This document shows positions 8,052-63,704 of a stretch of 64,000 nt of DNA, in pieces. Source of the stretch: Gallionella sp. (lineage in GTDB: Bacteria; Pseudomonadota; Gammaproteobacteria; Burkholderiales; Gallionellaceae); contig JAQTLM010000007.1 of NCBI GenBank assembly GCA_028714895.1, forward strand, positions 41,685 through 105,684. Reading direction: 5' to 3'. A model generated the notes under the pieces. That model was not told where the DNA came from and ran no database searches. It saw only the letters and a program-made list of their open reading frames with translations. Each line of letters begins with the position of its first letter. Position 1 is the first letter of the stretch. Position numbers and translations under genes: made by a program.

Positions 8052-9025
8052 ATGAAAGATAAACAATGCGGTGCATCCGCCGCGAAGGGCAGGGCCGCAC
8101 CTGCCGAAAAAACCGGTTTGCATCCGCGCAATCCGCACCGGGGCCGTTATGACTTCAGGCAGCTCATCGCCTGCAGCCCGGAGCTGGCGGCATTTGTCGC
8201 GACGAATGAGTATGGCGACGAGTCCATCGCTTTCGCCGACCCGGCGGCGGTCAAGGCGCTCAACCGCGCGTTGTTGAAACAGACATACGGCATCACGGGC
8301 TGGGACATTCCGGCGCAGTATCTCTGCCCGCCCATCCCGGGCAGGGCGGACTATCTCCACTATCTCGCCGACCTGCCGGCAGCATCCCGCGCGGCAAATC
8401 CGTCCGGGTGCTCGACATCGGCGTCGGCGCCAACTGCATCTATCCGCTCATCGGCCACCGCGAGTATGGCTGGCAGTTCGTCGGCACCGACATCGATCCG
8501 GCTGCACTCGACAACGCGCAACGTATCCTGGATGCGAACAGCGGATTAAGCGATGCCATCGAACTGCGCCTGCAAACGTCACGCTCGGCGGTCTTCACCG
8601 GCGTGGTGCGGGCGAATGAGATGTTCGACCTCACCCTGTGCAATCCGCCGTTCCATGCATCGCTGGCCGAAGCCAATGCCGGCACGCAGCGCAAATGGAA
8701 AAATCTTGGCAAGGATGCCGCGAGGCAGCCGCTGCTGAATTTCGGCGGGCAGGGCGCGGAGCTGTGGTGTGAGGGGGGCGAGGAGGCTTTCGTATGCCGC
8801 ATGATCGAGGAGAGCGCGCAGCTTCGCGGCAGCTGTCTGTGGTTCACCACGCTGGTCTCGAAGTCGGCCAGCCTGCCCGGCGTTTATCGCGCGCTGAAAC
8901 AAACCGGCGTGCTGGACAGCAGGACGATAGAGATGGCGCAGGGGCAGAAAAAGAGCCGGATCGTGGCGTGGACTTTCCTCGACGAGAGCCGGCAACGCGC
9001 GTGGCGCATGGCGCGCTGGAAATGA
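8052..9025 (+). pseudogene. rlmF: 23S rRNA m6A1618 methyltransferase, frameshifted near 8376
   Basis: N-half ([16 protein letters not shown]) in one frame; C-half ([26 protein letters not shown]) in another. The junction is at GACCTGCCGGCAGC. Confidence 0.85.
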
Positions 9026-14150: not shown

Positions 14151-14157
14151 TTAATTC

Positions 14158-14244
14158 GTAGGTTGGGTTAGCGCAGCGTAACCCAACAATCCTTGATGCG
14201 CATTCTGGGGTATGTCGGGTTAGCGCTGCGCTAACCCGACATAC
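14158..14244. repeat. GTAG-family REP doublet (REPIN-like)
   Basis: GTAGGTTGGGTTAGCGCAGCGTAACCCAACA plus inverted partner TGTCGGGTTAGCGCTGCGCTAACCCGACATAC. Confidence 0.8.
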
Positions 14245-14272
14245 CAATAACAAGCGCGTATTTTACGCGAAT

Positions 14273-22730: not shown

Positions 22731-23456
22731 ATGAAGAAAAGTCTGTTGGTATTGAGCCTGATTTCCTTGTATGGCAGCGCATTCGCGGCGGATTTCACCG
22801 ACACCGCGCGCGTGGTTTCCAGTACCCCGATCTACGAACGTGTTACGGAACCGAAGCGCGAGTGCTGGACGGAAACCGTGCAGGTCGCGCCTAAAGAACG
22901 CTCCATGGGCGGCGCGGTAGTCGGCGGTGTCGCCGGCGGCCTGCTGGGTAGCCAGGTTGGCGGGGGCAAAGGCAGTACGGCTGCGACCGGCGCCGGTGCG
23001 GTGGCCGGTGCGGTGATCGGCGACCGTGTGTCCAACCCGGACAGCAACCGTTCCGCAACCGGCGCGGTAGTCGGCGGTGTGGCTGGCGCGTTGCTGGGCA
23101 GCCAGATTGGCGGCGGCACGGGTAACAAGGCCGCAACTGCAGCGGGTGGTATTGCCGGTGTGATGATTGGTGATCGTGTCGCCAACCCGGATCAGCCGCG
23201 TACCGAACAAGTGGAGCGCTGCCGCCAAGTTGATTCCAGCCGCGAAGTGATCAAGGGCTACAACGTGACCTACCGCTACAACGGACAGGACATCACCACC
23301 ACTCTGCCGTACCAACCCGGCTCGACTATCCGTGTGGGTGTGAGCGTCATCGATGATCAACAAGGCCAACGTTATGAAGAGCCGCAAAAACGGCGTAATG
23401 AAGGGCTACAAGGTCGACGTTATGAAGGTCGTAGTGATAGACCTAATTATCAGTAA
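22731..23456 (+). CDS. Exported glycine-zipper 2TM protein (YcfJ-like) with tandem zippers
   Basis: Signal peptide, ARVVSSTP, two GAVVGGVAG.LLGSQ.GGG.G..AAT repeats, GYNVTYRYNG. Confidence 0.85.
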   Translation: MKKSLLVLSLISLYGSAFAADFTDTARVVSSTPIYERVTEPKRECWTETVQVAPKERSMGGAVVGGVAGGLLGSQVGGGKGSTAATGAGAVAGAVIGDRVSNPDSNRSATGAVVGGVAGALLGSQIGGGTGNKAATAAGGIAGVMIGDRVANPDQPRTEQVERCRQVDSSREVIKGYNVTYRYNGQDITTTLPYQPGSTIRVGVSVIDDQQGQRYEEPQKRRNEGLQGRRYEGRSDRPNYQ

Positions 23457-23465
23457 TTGCTACTT

Positions 23466-23494
23466 AAAAAAGCCCGGCTTAGTCCGGGCTTTTT
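23466..23494. terminator. Bidirectional intrinsic terminator
   Basis: AAAAAAGCCCGG-CTTAGT-CCGGGCTTTTT between convergent genes. Confidence 0.85.
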
Positions 23495-23496
23495 AC

Positions 23497-23584
23497 CGCT
23501 ATGTGGTAGCTGTTGCACTTTCCCCATCCCGGCAGACTAATGAATCTGCTGGGACGGGGAAAGTGCAACAGCTACCACATAGCG
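23497..23584. repeat. 88-bp palindrome (40-bp arms, 2 mismatches, 8-nt loop)
   Basis: CGCTATGTGGTAGCTGTTGCACTTTCCCCATCCCGGCAGA / TCTGCTGGGACGGGGAAAGTGCAACAGCTACCACATAGCG. Confidence 0.92.
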
Positions 23585-23603
23585 CTTTGTTCGCTAGCGG
23601 GAA

Positions 23604-23629
23604 TTAGCCGAATCTGCCGGTAATGTAGT
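23604..23629 (-). repeat. Orphan synonymous copy of the pstB 3' end (YITGRFG-stop)
   Basis: 22/26 identity to 23680-23705; all 4 differences are at third codon positions. Confidence 0.85.
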
Positions 23630-23679
23630 GGCTACGGCATAACCTGAAGGTAAGTCTGCGCCGCTACATAACAGGCAGG

Positions 23680-24468
23680 TTAACCAAATCTGCCTGTTAT
23701 GTAGTCCTCGGTTTCCTTGCGTTTCGGGTTGGTGAACACCGTGCTGGTGTCGCCGAACTCGATCAAATCCCCCAGATACATATAGGCGGTGAAATCGGAG
23801 ACGCGCGCGGCTTGCTGCATGTTGTGCGTGACGATGACGATGGTGAAGTCTTCCTTCAGTTCGTCGATCAGTTTTTCGATGTGCGCGGTCGAGATCGGGT
23901 CGAGCGCCGAGGTCGGTTCATCCAGCAGCAAAACTTGCGGCTTGACGGCGATGGCGCGCGCGATGCACAGGCGCTGCTGCTGCCCGCCGGACAGGCTGGT
24001 GCCGCTTTGTTTGAGCTTGTCCTTGGCTTCAGTCCACAGCGCGGCTTTGCGCAATGCCCATTCGACACGCTCATCCATGTCATTCTTGCTGAGACTTTCA
24101 TACAGTTTTACGCCAAACGCGATATTGTCGTAAATCGACATCGGGAACGGAGTGGGCTTCTGGAACACCATGCCAATCTTGGCGCGCAGCATGTTCAGGT
24201 CCTGCTTTTTGTCGAGGATATTTTCGCCGTCCAGCAGGATTTCCCCGGCGGCTTTCTGCTTGGGGTAGAGCTGATACATGCGGTTGAAGGTACGCAACAG
24301 TGTGGATTTGCCGCAACCGGACGGGCCGATGAAGGCGGTCACCATTTTTTCGGCGATGCTCAGGTTGATGTCCTTGAGCGCGCGGTAGTCCCCGTAATAA
24401 AAGTTGAGATCCCTGACAATTATCTTTGGGACGGTTATTTTTGGATTGGCGATGTTTTCGGCAGTCAT
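23680..24468 (-). CDS. pstB: Phosphate ABC transporter ATP-binding protein
   Basis: [51 protein letters not shown]. Confidence 0.97.
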
Positions 24469-24480
24469 TTGTGAACCTTG

Positions 24481-25326
24481 TTAATGAGAGGCGGCCTTTT
24501 GCCGGAACAGCACGCGCGCCAGGATATTGAGTGTCAGTACGCTAAGGGTAATCAGCAGCGCGCCGGCCCATGCCAATTTTTGCCAGTCTTCATAAGGGCT
24601 CATGGCGAACTGGAAAATCACCACCGGCAAGTTCGCCATCGGCTGGTTCATATTGCTGTTCCAGAACTGGTTGTTCAGCGCGGTGAACAGCAGCGGCGCG
24701 GTTTCGCCGCTGATGCGCGCGATGGCCAGCATCACGCCGGTGATAATTCCGGCACGCGCGGCGCGCAAGGTGACGAAGTTGATGATTTTCCATTGCGGCG
24801 CGCCGAGTGCCGCTGCCGCTTCGCGCAGCGTGGTCGGCACCAGGCGCAACATGTTTTCGGTGGTGCGGATGACGATGGGAATGACGATGATGGATAACGC
24901 TAACGCGCCTGCCCAACCGGAAAAATGCTTGATGTGAACGACATAAACTTCGTACACGAATAATCCGATGACAATGGAGGGCGCGGAGAGCAATACGTCG
25001 TTGATGAAGCGCGTGATCGGGGCGAGCCAGCCGCGCTGGCCGAATTCGGCCAGATAGGTTCCGGCCAAAATACCGATGGGGGTGCCGATCAGCGTGCCGA
25101 CCAGCGTCATCATCAGGCTGCCGGCAATGGCGTTGAGCAGTCCGCCGCTGCTGCCCGGTGGCGGGGTCATCTGCGCGAACACTACCGGGGCGAGCGCAGG
25201 CAAGCCATGCTCCAGCAATGTCCATAGAATCCAGCACAGCCAAAACAGGCCGAATGCCATGGCCAGTATTGAGATGGCGAGGCCGACGGCGTTGATGATG
25301 CGGCGGCGCGTATAGAGGCTCAGCAT
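24481..25326 (-). CDS. pstA: Phosphate ABC transporter permease PstA
   Basis: Start MLSLYTRRR inside the longer ORF; [32 protein letters not shown]. Confidence 0.95.
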
Positions 25327-25328
25327 GG

Positions 25329-26291
25329 TTACGAGACCTGCCCTTCGCGTTGCCCGAGCTTGTAGAGCATGTAGCGCGCGAGCGACAAGACCACAAAGGT
25401 GATGAAGAACAGGATCAGGCCGAGTTCGATCAGCGCGGAGGTATAGAGCTCCCCGTAGGCCTCGGTGAATTCGTTGGCGAGCGCCGAGGCAATACTGTTG
25501 CCCGGCATCAATAAGGATTTGCTCAGTTCGTGCGAATTGCCGATGACGAAGGTGACGGCCATTGTTTCGCCCAGCGCGCGTCCCAATCCCAGCATGATGC
25601 CGCCGACCACGCCGATCTTGGTGTAGGGCAGCACAACTTTCCACATGACTTCCCAAGTGGTTGCACCCAAGCCATAGGCCGATTCTTTCAGCAAGGTGGG
25701 TACTACTTCGAACACGTCGCGCATCACCGACGCGATAAACGGGATCACCATGATGGCAAGAATAATGCCGGCGGCCAGCATGCCGATGCCCATCGGCGGG
25801 CCGGAGAAGAGCGGACCGATGTACGGCATCGTGCCGATATGGTCGTTGAGCCAGGGCTCGACATGATCGGCAAACAGCGGCGCAAACACGAACAATCCCC
25901 ACATGCCGTAGATGATGCTGGGAATGCCCGCCAGCAATTCGATGGCGACACCGAGTGGGCGGCGCAGAATGCGCGGTGATAGTTCAGTCAGAAAAATGGC
26001 GATGCCGAAGCTGACCGGAATGGCGATCAGCAGCGCGATAGCGGAGGTGACCAGCGTGCCGACTATCGGGATCAGCGCGCCGAATTTGTCGTTGACCGGG
26101 TCCCAATCAGAACTGGTCAGGAAGCCGAAGCCAAACGTATGGATGGCAGGCATGCTGCCCACCAACAGTGAGCCGATGATGGCGGCGAGCAAAATCAGTA
26201 CGCCAAATGCCGAGACGCGCGTCAGATTGCGGAACAGCAGGTCCAATACGGTGTGCCGTTTAAGGCTTGCTTCGCGTAAAAACATCGGCAT
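25329..26291 (-). CDS. pstC: Phosphate ABC transporter permease PstC
   Basis: [38 protein letters not shown]. Confidence 0.95.
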
Positions 26292-26316
26292 AATTTGAGT
26301 TAGTCAATAAAAAATA

Positions 26317-26336
26317 GCGGGGGCAAGAACCCCCGC
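26317..26336 (-). terminator. Hairpin between pstS and pstC (terminator or mRNA stabiliser)
   Basis: GCGGGGG-CAAGAA-CCCCCGC; T-rich tail on the minus strand. Confidence 0.55.
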
Positions 26337-26359
26337 GATTATAACTTGGGAATACCGGT

Positions 26360-27409
26360 TTATTGCACCAATGCCTTGCCGGTTGCGTCCTTGATTTGTG
26401 CTTTCCATGCGGCACGAATCAGTTTTACGACATTTTCCGGTAGTGGCACGTAATCCAGGTCGGCAGCCAGTTTGCCGCCCTTGTCATAAGTCCAGTCAAA
26501 GAACTTCAGCACTTCCTTGCCGGCTTCCGGTTTTTCCTGCACCTTGTGCATCAGCACGAAAGTCGCGCCGCTGATCGGCCAGCTTTCCTTGCCCGCCTCG
26601 TCGGTCAGGATTTTATAGAAACCCGGTGCCTTGTCCCATTGCGCGCCGGCGGCGGCAGCCTTGAAACTGCGATCCTCCGGCTTGATGAATTGGCCGTCGC
26701 GATTCTTCATCTGCACGGTATTCATCTTGTTTTGCAGCGCGTAGGCATACTCCACATATCCGATAGTGTTCTTCATCCGTTGCACGTTGGCAGCCACACC
26801 TTCGTTGCCTTTTCCGCCGATCCCGGCTTTCCAGGAAACTGCGGTGCTTTCACCCACGGCAGATTTCCATTCGGCGCTGACTTTGGACAGGTAGTTGGTG
26901 AAGATGAAGGTGGTGCCGGAACCATCCGAGCGATGCACCACCGTGATATTGTCGGCGGGCAGCTTGAGGTCCTTGTTCAGCGCCACCAGCGCGGGGTCAT
27001 TCCATTTGGTGATCTTGCCCAGGTAGATATTGGCCAGCGTCGCGCCATCCAGTTTCAATTGGCCTGCGCCGATGTCCTTTATATTGACCACCGGAACCAC
27101 GCCGCCGATCACGGTCGGGAACTGCATCAGGCCGTTCTTGTCGAGTTCTTCCGGTTTGAGCGGCATATCGGACGCGCCGAAATCCACGGTCTTGGCGGTG
27201 ATCTGCTTGATGCCGCCGCCGGAGCCGATGGACTGGTAATTCATGCCCACGCCGGTCTGCGCCTTATATGCTTCGGCCCATTTGGCATAGATCGGATAAG
27301 GGAAGGTCGCGCCCGCGCCGGTGATGCCGGTTGCCCGGCTCGCGCCGGCGCAAGCCAGCGCAGCGGCGGCCGTGATGACGATGACGAATTGTCTGAGTTT
27401 GCCGTTCAT
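26360..27409 (-). CDS. pstS: Phosphate ABC transporter substrate-binding protein
   Basis: TGAGATFPYP, YQSIGSGGG, DFGASD, RSDGSGTT, IGYVEYAYA. Confidence 0.97.
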   Translation of the reverse strand: MNGKLRQFVIVITAAAALACAGASRATGITGAGATFPYPIYAKWAEAYKAQTGVGMNYQSIGSGGGIKQITAKTVDFGASDMPLKPEELDKNGLMQFPTVIGGVVPVVNIKDIGAGQLKLDGATLANIYLGKITKWNDPALVALNKDLKLPADNITVVHRSDGSGTTFIFTNYLSKVSAEWKSAVGESTAVSWKAGIGGKGNEGVAANVQRMKNTIGYVEYAYALQNKMNTVQMKNRDGQFIKPEDRSFKAAAAGAQWDKAPGFYKILTDEAGKESWPISGATFVLMHKVQEKPEAGKEVLKFFDWTYDKGGKLAADLDYVPLPENVVKLIRAAWKAQIKDATGKALVQ

Positions 27410-29785: not shown

Positions 29786-29873
29786 GTAGCCCGGATGAAG
29801 CGAAGCGGAATCCGGGGGAGCAGTGGGCGTATCCGAAAGTGCTCCGGATTGCATTGCATTTCATCCGGGCTAC
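29786..29873. repeat. GTAG-family REP doublet; supplies the stop codon of the 29870 gene
   Basis: GTAGCCCGGATGAAGCGAAGCGGAATCCGGG ... CCGGATTGCATTGCATTTCATCCGGGCTAC. Confidence 0.82.
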
Positions 29874-31452: not shown

Positions 31453-31555
31453 GTAGGCTGGCGGTGAGGCACGAACCCCAGCCGCTTCGACAGGCTCAGG
31501 ACAGGCATGTTCGAGGTCACCAAACGCTGGGGTTCGTGCCTCTCCGCCAGCCTAC
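31453..31555. repeat. GTAG REP doublet (30-bp arms, 1 mismatch) with an embedded CTTCGACAGGCTCAG repeat
   Basis: GTAGGCTGGCGGTGAGGCACGAACCCCAGC ... GCTGGGGTTCGTGCCTCTCCGCCAGCCTAC. Confidence 0.85.
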
Positions 31556-63628: not shown

Positions 63629-63630
63629 TT

Positions 63631-63687
63631 GTAGGTCGGGCTTCAGCCCGACATGGTGGGGCAGCGTCGGGTTGAAGCCCGACCTAC
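63631..63687. repeat. GTAG REP doublet between nuoL and nuoM
   Basis: GTAGGTCGGGCTTCAGCCCGACA ... CGTCGGGTTGAAGCCCGACCTAC. Confidence 0.85.
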
Positions 63688-63704
63688 AATAAAGGAATAA
63701 CAGC

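Follow-up and report, generated by a model that had tools for sequence, protein, structure and literature searches.

Repetitive extragenic palindromes (REPs), bacterial interspersed mosaic elements (BIMEs) and REP doublets forming hairpins (REPINs) are short imperfect palindromes (~35-60 nt), present many times per genome and mostly just downstream of genes, which form mosaic arrays with other hairpin modules, display strand-specific features and have no coding capacity of their own. REPs were reported to overlap stop codons or to lie within genes, a duplicated and recoded gene terminus with an inverted copy being undescribed in that survey (PMC3733652). Phages and integrative and conjugative elements (ICEs) using attP, as well as cis-mobilizable elements (CIMEs), integrate at gene 3' ends, where the incoming diverged end keeps the gene intact, the old end persists as a direct repeat on the far side and further elements may accrete in tandem. 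Similarly, mobile open reading frames (ORFs) of fungal mitochondria form "gene hybrids" (Allomyces atp6; Glomus atp6, atp9, cox2 and nad3) with an acquired in-frame C-terminus and a displaced native one, the differences between both being largely synonymous (PMC3630166). Here we describe a cassette that combines a repeat resembling REPs and miniature inverted-repeat transposable elements (MITEs) with an att-like replacement of a gene terminus. It lies at the end of pstB, in a 64,000-nt stretch of a Gallionella sp. assembly (GCA_028714895.1, contig JAQTLM010000007.1, positions 41,685 to 105,684), hereafter called the window.

The cassette is made of a direct repeat holding the functional gene end (DR1), an inverted copy of the start of this repeat (H') and a conserved hairpin (L). 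Comparison with related loci makes it likely that DR1-H'-L is a mobile-type hairpin cassette that replaces the pstB end, that L comes from a dispersed repeat and that the units are turned over and transferred; how the cassette moves is inferred from this comparison.

The end of pstB in the window

The following features were delineated, positions being those of the window.

23680-24468, minus strand: pstB coding sequence, ABC ATPase of the PstSCAB phosphate transporter (ORF list, translation, Pfam ABC_tran)
23680-23705, minus strand: DR1, functional terminus located on the cassette, ACTACATAACAGGCAGATTTGGTTAA (direct-repeat analysis)
23679-23689, minus strand: loop of the stop-codon hairpin, ATTTGGTTAAC, containing TAA (repeat analysis and minimum-energy folds)
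23664-23678, minus strand: H', inverted copy of the first 15 nt of DR1, CTGCCTGTTATGTAG (15/15 complementary)
23629-23663, minus strand: L, conserved imperfect hairpin of 35 nt, CGGCGCAGAC-TTACCTTCAGGTTA-TGCCGTAGCCA, member of a dispersed repeat family
23604-23629, minus strand: DR2, orphan pstB terminus, ACTACATTACCGGCAGATTCGGCTAA, untranslated and differing from DR1 at four synonymous positions
24484-27409: pstA, pstC and pstS, upstream of pstB (Pfam BPD_transp_1 in two ORFs, PBP_like_2 in 26363-27409)

On the sense strand, these elements follow each other as GAG G|ACTACATAACAGGCAGATTTGGTTAA (DR1), a single C, CTGCCTGTTATGTAG (H'), CGGCGCAGACTTACCTTCAGGTTATGCCGTAGCC(A) (L) and (A)CTACATTACCGGCAGATTCGGCTAA (DR2), the base A at 23629 being common to the end of L and the start of DR2. 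The protein terminates with ...EDYITGRFG* and the stop codon TAA at 23680-23682. DR1 starts with the third base of the Asp codon and ends with the stop codon, and its first 15-16 nt form the 5' arm of a hairpin closed by H'. A first-pass annotation of the window, made from the letters alone, had stated that the pstB end occurs twice, 76 bp apart, with synonymous differences only, and that a perfect 15-bp inverted copy folds over the stop codon. Both statements were confirmed: the direct repeat (23680-23705 vs 23604-23629) is 26 nt long with 22/26 identical positions and 76 nt from start to start, which places DR2 out of frame with pstB, and the four differences (ATA/ATT, ACA/ACC, TTT/TTC and GGT/GGC) are all synonymous. 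The inverted repeat (23664-23678 vs 23690-23704) is complementary at 15/15 positions, or at 94% over 18 nt, and its 11-nt loop holds TTTGGTTAA with the stop codon. H' is flush against L, which reads CGGCGCAGACTTACCTTCAGGTTATGCCGTAGCCA at 23629-23663 and occupies the 35 nt separating H' from the orphan.

A 15-mer with at most three mismatches is expected 0.86 times per 64 kb, as compared to three copies inside 100 bp at this locus. The fold of the 117-nt region also exceeds that of shuffled sequence in stability (z = -4.0 for DNA and -3.9 for RNA). There is no U-tract after the stop-codon hairpin, and the intrinsic bidirectional terminator is found downstream (23467-23494), before the convergent gene of a glycine-zipper protein.

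Positions 23630-23705 form one 76-bp cassette (DR1 + H' + L), located at a precise point of pstB between the second and third bases of the Asp codon of ...EDYITGRFG*, and DR2 is a formerly functional pstB end, pushed 76 nt downstream as an untranslated orphan. The insert had initially been sized at 50 bp; this is correct for the DNA between the two copies (15-nt inverted copy plus 35-nt L), but the unit that turns over is the 76 bp of DR1, H' and L. Since the stop-codon hairpin belongs to the cassette, it is not a regulatory device evolved by pstB, although it probably continues to function as a stem-loop at the 3' end of the mRNA.

Comparison with described elements

The cassette shares with REPs, BIMEs and REPINs all the traits listed above. 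However, the consensus of 96 L copies has no GTAG or CGTC head, and no REP-associated tyrosine transposase (RAYT) was found among the 53 window ORFs of at least 110 amino acids, nor any recurrent family near the 119 listed L loci. With integrative elements, the cassette has in common the incoming diverged end that keeps the gene intact, the old end left as a direct repeat and the tandem accretion. In these elements kilobases separate the repeats, whereas here there are about 50 bp and neither integrase, cargo nor invariant core; moreover, the cassette has an extra inverted copy of the target, and its conserved part is a dispersed hairpin also found without repeats. The absence of an integrase, already reported by the first-pass annotation, was upheld, as no integrase, transposase or reverse transcriptase gene was present among the same 53 ORFs. 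The mitochondrial gene hybrids have the same architecture and the same synonymous divergence between both termini as the cassette, but they measure ~1 kb and are mobilized by a LAGLIDADG or GIY-YIG homing endonuclease, whereas the pstB cassette has 50 bp between the copies, no ORF and bacterial hosts.

Insertion sequences of the IS200/IS605 family and palindrome-associated transposable elements (PATEs) also resemble the cassette through their hairpin ends, the lack of a short target-site duplication, a precise site and a fixed orientation, and their choice of target by base pairing beside the hairpin foot is a plausible parallel for H'. On the contrary, they have a 4-5-nt 5' target, no copy of the target and, in autonomous copies, a transposase gene, none of which was found at L-cassettes: 5' of the junction, only ...G|A is common to the various targets (GAAG, GAGG, CTTG, TTCG, GATG, ACTG), and 20-60 nt of target are present on both sides.

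Finally, integron attC arrays resemble the stacks of cassettes, being built from short units that close with an imperfect hairpin, whose central bases are unpaired and whose tip varies, and of which the most recent occupies the expressed position. Yet the cassette boundaries, which read ...GTAR|CGGYG and ...RCCA|YTAC, lack the R''/R' core sites (RYYYAAC / GTTRRRY), and TAAC/GTTA is confined to the foot of the variable tip. What the units carry is gene ends and not genes, and, regarding intI/attI, no integrase is encoded in the 64-kb window. An attC reading was therefore rejected for its missing core sites, as were a dif/Xer reading, for its poor resemblance to a dif arm, and a diversity-generating retroelement, the differences not being adenine-specific.

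A dispersed hairpin repeat family

What the first-pass annotation had left unnoticed is the nature of the 35 nt that separate H' from DR2, namely a conserved imperfect hairpin of a dispersed repeat family. Exact matches to the core GACTNACCTTYAGGTTA..CGNARCCA in betaproteobacterial genomes identified at least 119 L loci, nearly all in Gallionellaceae, Sideroxydans, Thiobacillus and other Betaproteobacteria, with several loci per genome and most of them unrelated to pstB. L is a member of this REP/MITE-like family of ~35-60-nt imperfect hairpins, dispersed in Gallionellaceae and other Betaproteobacteria, and the pstB copy is the only one in the window. The consensus of 96 copies is GTTK|CGGYGNAGAC-TAACCTTYAGGTTA-TGTCGNARCCA|MAA, with a symmetric but strand-specific internal loop (CGNAG/CGNAG) and covariation of positions 4 and 32 that supports the stem (C-G in 56 copies, T-A in 27, T.G in 8 and a mismatch in 5).

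L is frequently one module within larger mosaic repeats and occurs in both orientations relative to the neighboring genes, with a weak sense bias (45 vs 33), indicating that it is not strictly an element of 3' untranslated regions (UTRs). Among the matches listed, significant direct repeats flank 29/117 copies as compared to 3/117 controls with mismatched flanks, and in the gene-end cases DR2 begins 0 nt after L. No match to L was obtained in plasmid, phage and IMG/VR collections, and there is thus no sign of a vehicle or of a cargo-bearing version. In Rfam, L was unmatched when the window was searched from 23300 to 23900, the only hits being sub-threshold generic hairpins (microRNA-type) on the adjacent 88-nt palindrome. 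A looser linker pattern (CGGCGCAGAC..CGGARCCA) gave only chance matches in genome contigs of unrelated phyla.

GTAG/CTAC was considered as a REP head of L and rejected, other L copies being flanked by GTTK/MAA; it stands next to L at pstB only, where its source is the GAY-TAC (Asp-Tyr) codons. Four classical REPIN-like palindromes with GTAG...CTAC ends are present in the window (14154-14248, 29786-29873, 31453-31555 and 63629-63689), their ends being for example TTGTAGGTCGGGCTTCAGCCCGAC...GTCGGGTTGAAGCCCGACCTACAA. They were not retained as instances of the same phenomenon, as they belong to families other than L and exhibit no gene-end duplication.

pstB cassettes in related genomes

Protein comparison places the window in Gallionellaceae/Nitrosomonadales, although its PstB has no identical sequence on record, and the 20 closest genomes were inspected at pstB. 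The gene has a plain end in 11 of them and the DR1-H'-L-DR2 layout in the nine others, where the inverted copy begins 0-1 nt past the stop codon and is followed first by the linker CGGYGNAGRC-[hairpin]-GYCGNARCCA and then by YTACATNACNGGNMGNTTYGGNTRR again. When the search was anchored at the border between L and the orphan, 49 loci were retrieved, about 45 of which are true pstB cases from about as many species, among them Gallionellaceae, Thiobacillus, Rubrivivax, Curvibacter and a metagenome-assembled genome (MAG) of Rhodocyclaceae; the isolate Thiobacillus thioparus DSM 505 is among the carriers. The junction is identical across all these filled sites (GA|YTACAT, always between the second and third bases of the Asp codon). 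H' varies from 8 to 21 nt in length and is flush with L at all pstB loci.

In Rubrivivax, which belongs to the distant Burkholderiales, and in Curvibacter, phoU lies 3' of pstB and the orphan retains the ancestral ATGA overlap of stop and start codons; in Rubrivivax-type loci, the phoU start codon and its Shine-Dalgarno sequence lie on the orphan. Stacks of two to three units with different L variants are common (L205, L415, L416, L422, L426, L430, L438), and the arrays do not exceed about 260 bp, with hairpin modules and no gene between the copies in about 45 species. The first-pass annotation had proposed to look among relatives for empty sites and for larger, cargo-bearing versions: the former were found, and none of the latter was seen. 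Contigs from public sequencing runs confirm the cassette of the window; for the Thiobacillus layout, the matches in these runs were dominated by paralogous ABC ATPases.

In two loci (L412 of Gallionella sp. TF_12 and L441 of Gallionellales RIFCSPLOWO2_02_FULL_59_110), L is accompanied by a pstB-end orphan and a partial inverted copy, but pstB is absent upstream in the available DNA; either the array was split from pstB by a rearrangement or the cassette sits at a non-pstB site. Another duplication is found in L002 (Gallionellales RIFCSPLOWO2_02_FULL_57_47, ~2290-2480), where a 97-nt orphan of an internal pstB segment lies ~90 nt past the pstB stop and directly follows a REP-like GTAG/CTAC palindrome, a further case of gene-fragment duplication beside a hairpin repeat.

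Divergence of the copies

When orphans were located by the junction alone, 45 distinct pstB loci were obtained, of which five had orphans frameshifted by small indels and 40 could be compared. These 40 loci total 199 differences between DR1 and DR2, distributed as 25, 13 and 161 over codon positions 1, 2 and 3 (p = 3e-43). Wobble positions have diverged by 50%, as compared to 6% for the two other positions, and CGN/AGR exchanges in Arg codons account for many of the changes at position 1. The orphan still encodes YITGRFG* in 36/40 loci, and its tail, which has no pairing partner, is as conserved as the head that is able to pair with H'. The longest DR1/DR2 block common to most loci is TACAT, and even this one varies (TATAT). 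The intergenic DNA flanking the orphans is unalignable between these genomes. An orphan that is intact despite synonymous saturation, in the midst of unalignable intergenic DNA, implies that both copies diverged as working gene ends in different lineages, and hence that the orphan has been idle only for a brief time.

The stem formed by DR1 and H' was analyzed in 19 loci: 95.4% of the cells are paired, every variable column covaries with the synonymous codon choice of DR1, and double-sided changes amount to 55 as compared to 15.7 in shuffles, none of 500 shuffles reaching the observed value. At variable positions, H' fits DR1 in 63/70 cases and DR2 in 29/70, which is the chance level, although in the window H' is able to pair with DR2 at 13/15 positions. 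Because H' matches DR1 and not DR2, and because the stem columns covary, DR1 and H' travel or evolve as one unit. The claim that the insert carries both direct and inverted copies of its target is supported by the window and by its relatives.

Turnover and transfer of the cassettes

Closely related loci differ in their cassettes. L016 and L398 (95% identical) are 100% identical over ~170 nt, and then differ at every wobble position across the last ~42 nt, the break being ~15 nt upstream of DR1. The former is organized as [A'-H'A-L'-B:H'B] and the latter as [B:H'B-L-A], the common B hairpin differing by one compensated pair. Similarly, L010 and L203 (94.7% identical) have unit 2 in common, including the same 2-nt deletion, and a wholly different unit 1. 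ATA and ACA, which are rare codons found in DR1 of the window, are also present in L203. Conversely, DR1 and H' of the window are identical to those of L428 at 40/41 nt, while the pstB bodies are only 85.9% identical (63.5% at third positions). The presence of the same unit in genomes with distant pstB bodies indicates that units pass between lineages.

The nearest pstB body to that of the window (L439, 92.9%) differs in its orphan at 2/24 positions and in its DR1 at 5/24. The second nearest (L002, 92.6%) has an empty site, whose native end differs from the orphan of the window by 3 nt and from its DR1 by 6 nt. The earlier proposal that an insert entered the gene end with a replacement terminus is thus upheld by empty sites such as this one, by about 45 filled sites with an identical junction and by the synonymous saturation, as well as by sister genomes 95% identical with different cassettes and genomes 86% identical that share one at 40/41 nt.

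These sequence comparisons show that DR1, H' and L (76 bp) behave as a single replaceable unit. New units arise adjoining the gene, and older ones are displaced downstream into stacks, where they decay by indels. The left boundary of the foreign tract is variable and behaves like a homologous crossover, whereas the right junction is precise. As units stack, the orphan corresponds to the gene end used beforehand, which need not be the ancestral one.

The same architecture at other genes

The dispersed hairpin repeat is repeatedly associated with the replacement of conserved-gene termini, well beyond pstB. The recurrent order begins with the gene end and stop codon. A gap of 0-6 nt, or the terminator belonging to the gene, precedes H', which is flush with L and complementary to the start of the repeat; then come L itself and the orphan running into the native downstream DNA. 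In an acs-like gene (L334), 10/10 differences are synonymous, including two first-position Leu changes. In pheS, the ATGA overlap with pheT is retained on the orphan, as is the junction to hisB in a hisC-like aminotransferase gene that exhibits tandem arrays. A gene of the enoyl-CoA-hydratase family has the layout in five genomes, with overwhelmingly synonymous differences. At tRNA-Ser(UGA), an L-bearing module sits in the anticodon loop of a truncated copy followed by the complete tRNA, so that the duplicated part is the 5' half.

In L308, L335, L358 and L363, two to three identical units made of the hisC-like end (56 nt) and L are found in tandem, followed by the diverged native end, which suggests repeated gain of one unit or unequal crossing-over. 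The tRNA-Ser(UGA) loci (L282, L309, L324, L343, L366 and L373; also L325 and L305) belong to several Gallionellaceae. Their truncated copy (positions 1-46) carries a CAAC..GTTG hairpin and L, and precedes a promoter-like spacer of 25-86 nt and the complete tRNA; the 5' halves are 100% identical within a genome and different between genomes. In two Thiobacillus MAGs (L284, L370), L lies at the 5' end of a minus-strand gene, and the ribosome-binding site with ATGCATCC(A/C)GC(A/T)TTT (MHPAF...) is copied on each side of L, with an inverted bit flush with L; the cassette architecture therefore seems to replace gene starts as well.

Possible mechanism and alternative explanations

If the cassette is indeed mobile, the primary event would put L into a target and duplicate 20-60 nt of it; the identical repeats at tRNA-Ser and in the hisC arrays, and the nearly identical ones at L331, fit such an insertion with duplication. 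The stem beside L would then lengthen to include the neighboring target sequence as an inverted copy (H'), and the resulting self-folding two-hairpin unit would spread and be exchanged by recombination. On the left, its junction would lie in the gene body, 0-18 nt upstream of DR1, and resemble a homologous crossover; on the right, it would be exactly L|DR2. Three routes may be considered: out-of-register homologous recombination between arrays or with incoming DNA, Campbell-type integration of a small circle bearing the direct repeat, or a strand transfer guided by the pairing of H' with the target. The insertion is tolerated because the gene-proximal copy preserves the reading frame.

Several observations weigh against the replacement of the pstB end by a mobile-type cassette. 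Neither an enzyme nor a mobile intermediate was identified: the recombinase or reverse transcriptase that the first-pass annotation had suggested to look for is missing from the window, and clustering of the ORFs around the 119 listed L loci gave only housekeeping or spurious families, with no recurrent transposase-like ORF. The evidence comes mostly from MAGs, and the exact inserted segment is defined by the repeat boundaries only, since an empty site was found neither in a near-identical genome nor, from contigs of public sequencing runs, in near-identical populations. Flanking repeats are found at only ~25% of the L copies and a locus-specific flank hairpin at only 8-15%, among the matches listed, and the terminus-replacing form is therefore a subset of the behavior of this repeat. 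Across loci, neither DR1 nor DR2 clearly tracks the host phylogeny, and a foreign DR1 with a native DR2 is true for the window but not a general rule. Indeed, such a rule was rejected when both copies were compared to the nearest empty relative and correlated pairwise with body divergence, as no overall difference between DR1 and DR2 emerged in this test, in which some "empty" controls were misclassified. For this reason the orphan is described here as the previous end and not as the ancestral end, and the poor fit to the host tree is consistent with stacking, the orphan being the end in use before the latest cassette. Finally, fast concerted change of DR1 and H' inside the hairpin could explain part of the synonymous divergence without transfer. 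It is insufficient, however, given the foreign tract upstream of the hairpin in L016/L398 and the cassette common to the window and L428.

A more specific form of the mobile-cassette reading can be offered tentatively, as a speculation that is more apt to be wrong than right. L-cassettes might be self-folding homing elements without ORF, of an undescribed class, in which H' would be a programmable DNA guide and the 35-nt hairpin the site of strand transfer. An H' of 8-21 nt, complementary to the target, could then direct insertion to the exact 5' border of its match in a conserved gene, and the few codons that rebuild the gene end or, at other loci, the start or 5' half would come with the element. 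One hairpin with different H' might in this way account for the pstB, acs, pheS, hisC, enoyl-CoA hydratase and tRNA-Ser targets and for the newest-first stacks.

Among the alternatives, the one that survives best, though unlikely, is single-strand transposition of a PATE/REP-type element by an enzyme of the HUH/Y1 class (IS200/IS605- or RAYT-like). L and the DR1:H' stem would be its end hairpins, and an enzyme encoded in trans would excise a single-stranded DNA circle and paste it beside a sequence recognized by base pairing. The two hairpins are flush with the unit ends, there is no short target duplication of fixed length, the conserved features are strand-specific, the junction is precise, tandem identical units occur, and the genome also has classical GTAG...CTAC REP-like palindromes. 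In IS608, according to the work of Guynet, Ton-Hoang and Dyda, a guide reportedly pairs with the cleavage site, and the position of H' beside a hairpin foot may recall this arrangement. However, a Y1 transposase or RAYT gene was found neither in the window nor recurrently near L, L has no GTAG or CGTC head of its own, and no conserved tetranucleotide precedes the insertion point, where only ...G|A is common. Besides, IS200/IS605 elements do not carry 20-60 nt of target, and the left boundary of the foreign tract is variable.

We consider improbable that the locus is a vertically inherited cis-acting RNA structure of the pstB 3' UTR, in which the stop-codon hairpin, the L hairpin and an arm pairing alternatively with H' would tune termination, mRNA stability or translational coupling to phoU, the differences reflecting compensatory evolution and not mobility. 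The strong covariation in the DR1:H' stem and at L positions 4 and 32, the strand-specific symmetric loop of L, the ability of H' to pair with DR2 at 13/15 positions in the window, a fold stabler than shuffled sequence and the phoU start signals on the Rubrivivax-type orphan would all be expected from such a structure. Yet its distribution is patchy among close relatives, with different cassettes in 95%-identical genomes and the same one in distant genomes, and units with different L variants are stacked by two or three. At variable positions H' matches DR2 at chance level, and the orphan is conserved equally in its unpaired tail and in the head that could pair. L itself occurs in both orientations and at many unrelated loci, and no Rfam family matches it. 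An effect at the RNA level may have arisen after insertion.

Still less probable is a relic of site-specific integration, whereby the copies would be attL and attR of a phage, island or cis-mobilizable element with a homologous attP, whose interior was deleted as in CIMEs. A gene 3' end present as recoded direct repeats is the hallmark of such integration, the targets of the L family include a tRNA gene, and the tandem accretion of units resembles CIME/ICE arrays. In about 45 species, however, only hairpin modules separate the copies, in arrays of at most about 260 bp without any gene. The window encodes no integrase, DR1 and DR2 have no invariant identical core (the usually common TACAT varies), L is absent from phage, plasmid and IMG/VR collections, and what is conserved is a hairpin of 35 nt, which is dispersed over repeat-free loci as well.

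A purely local origin, by tandem duplication or template switching (direct-inverted-direct) in one ancestor followed by ordinary divergence, is hardly tenable and, as a full account of the locus, is already contradicted. Such a triplet can result from two template switches at a palindrome, and the identical or near-identical repeats at tRNA-Ser, in the hisC arrays and at L331 fit in-situ duplication as the primary event. However, an orphan free of constraint cannot remain intact until the two copies have diverged at 50% of the wobble positions and the adjoining intergenic DNA has become unalignable between the same genomes. Sister genomes differ in cassette where distant ones share it, and L is conserved at no fewer than 119 unrelated loci. 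A local tandem duplication decaying at random, which the first-pass annotation had named as the outcome that would speak against an insertion, is thus not what the relatives exhibit.

Significance

The strategy of bringing one's own gene end, used by phages, ICEs and mitochondrial homing-endonuclease elements, works at ~76 bp without any gene, and very small repeats can therefore colonize the coding ends of essential conserved genes harmlessly. As a consequence, horizontal replacement and synonymous saturation can affect the 8-20 terminal codons of pstB, acs, pheS, hisC and other genes in these bacteria, which distorts gene trees and estimates of synonymous divergence (dS), and nearby orphan gene ends and tRNA halves are by-products and not independent pseudogenes. 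If the inverted copy did guide insertion, the cassette would constitute a simple nucleic-acid-guided targeting system, for which T. thioparus DSM 505 is a cultured carrier. The arrangement was not described in the open-access literature searched, and a prior description is possible.

Other observations in the window

Between the pstB orphan and the terminator lies a near-perfect palindrome (23497-23584), with 40-nt arms that are 95% complementary and an 8-nt centre, CCCAGCAGATTCATTAGTCTGCCGGG, which faintly resembles the loop of the pstB-end hairpin. This palindrome is polymorphic: contigs of two groundwater metagenomes join 23495 to 23585, skipping 89 nt, and are otherwise ~99% identical to the window and still carry the pstB cassette. 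Its target duplication is no longer than 1 nt, and neither the window nor 1.4 Mb of related loci yielded a second copy.

A gene for an RNA methyltransferase of the RlmF type (Pfam Methyltransf_10, 8052-9022) is broken into an ORF at 8052-8546, matching profile positions 2-101, and another at 8621-9022, matching positions 178-299; a frameshift, a pseudogene or a sequencing error are possible.

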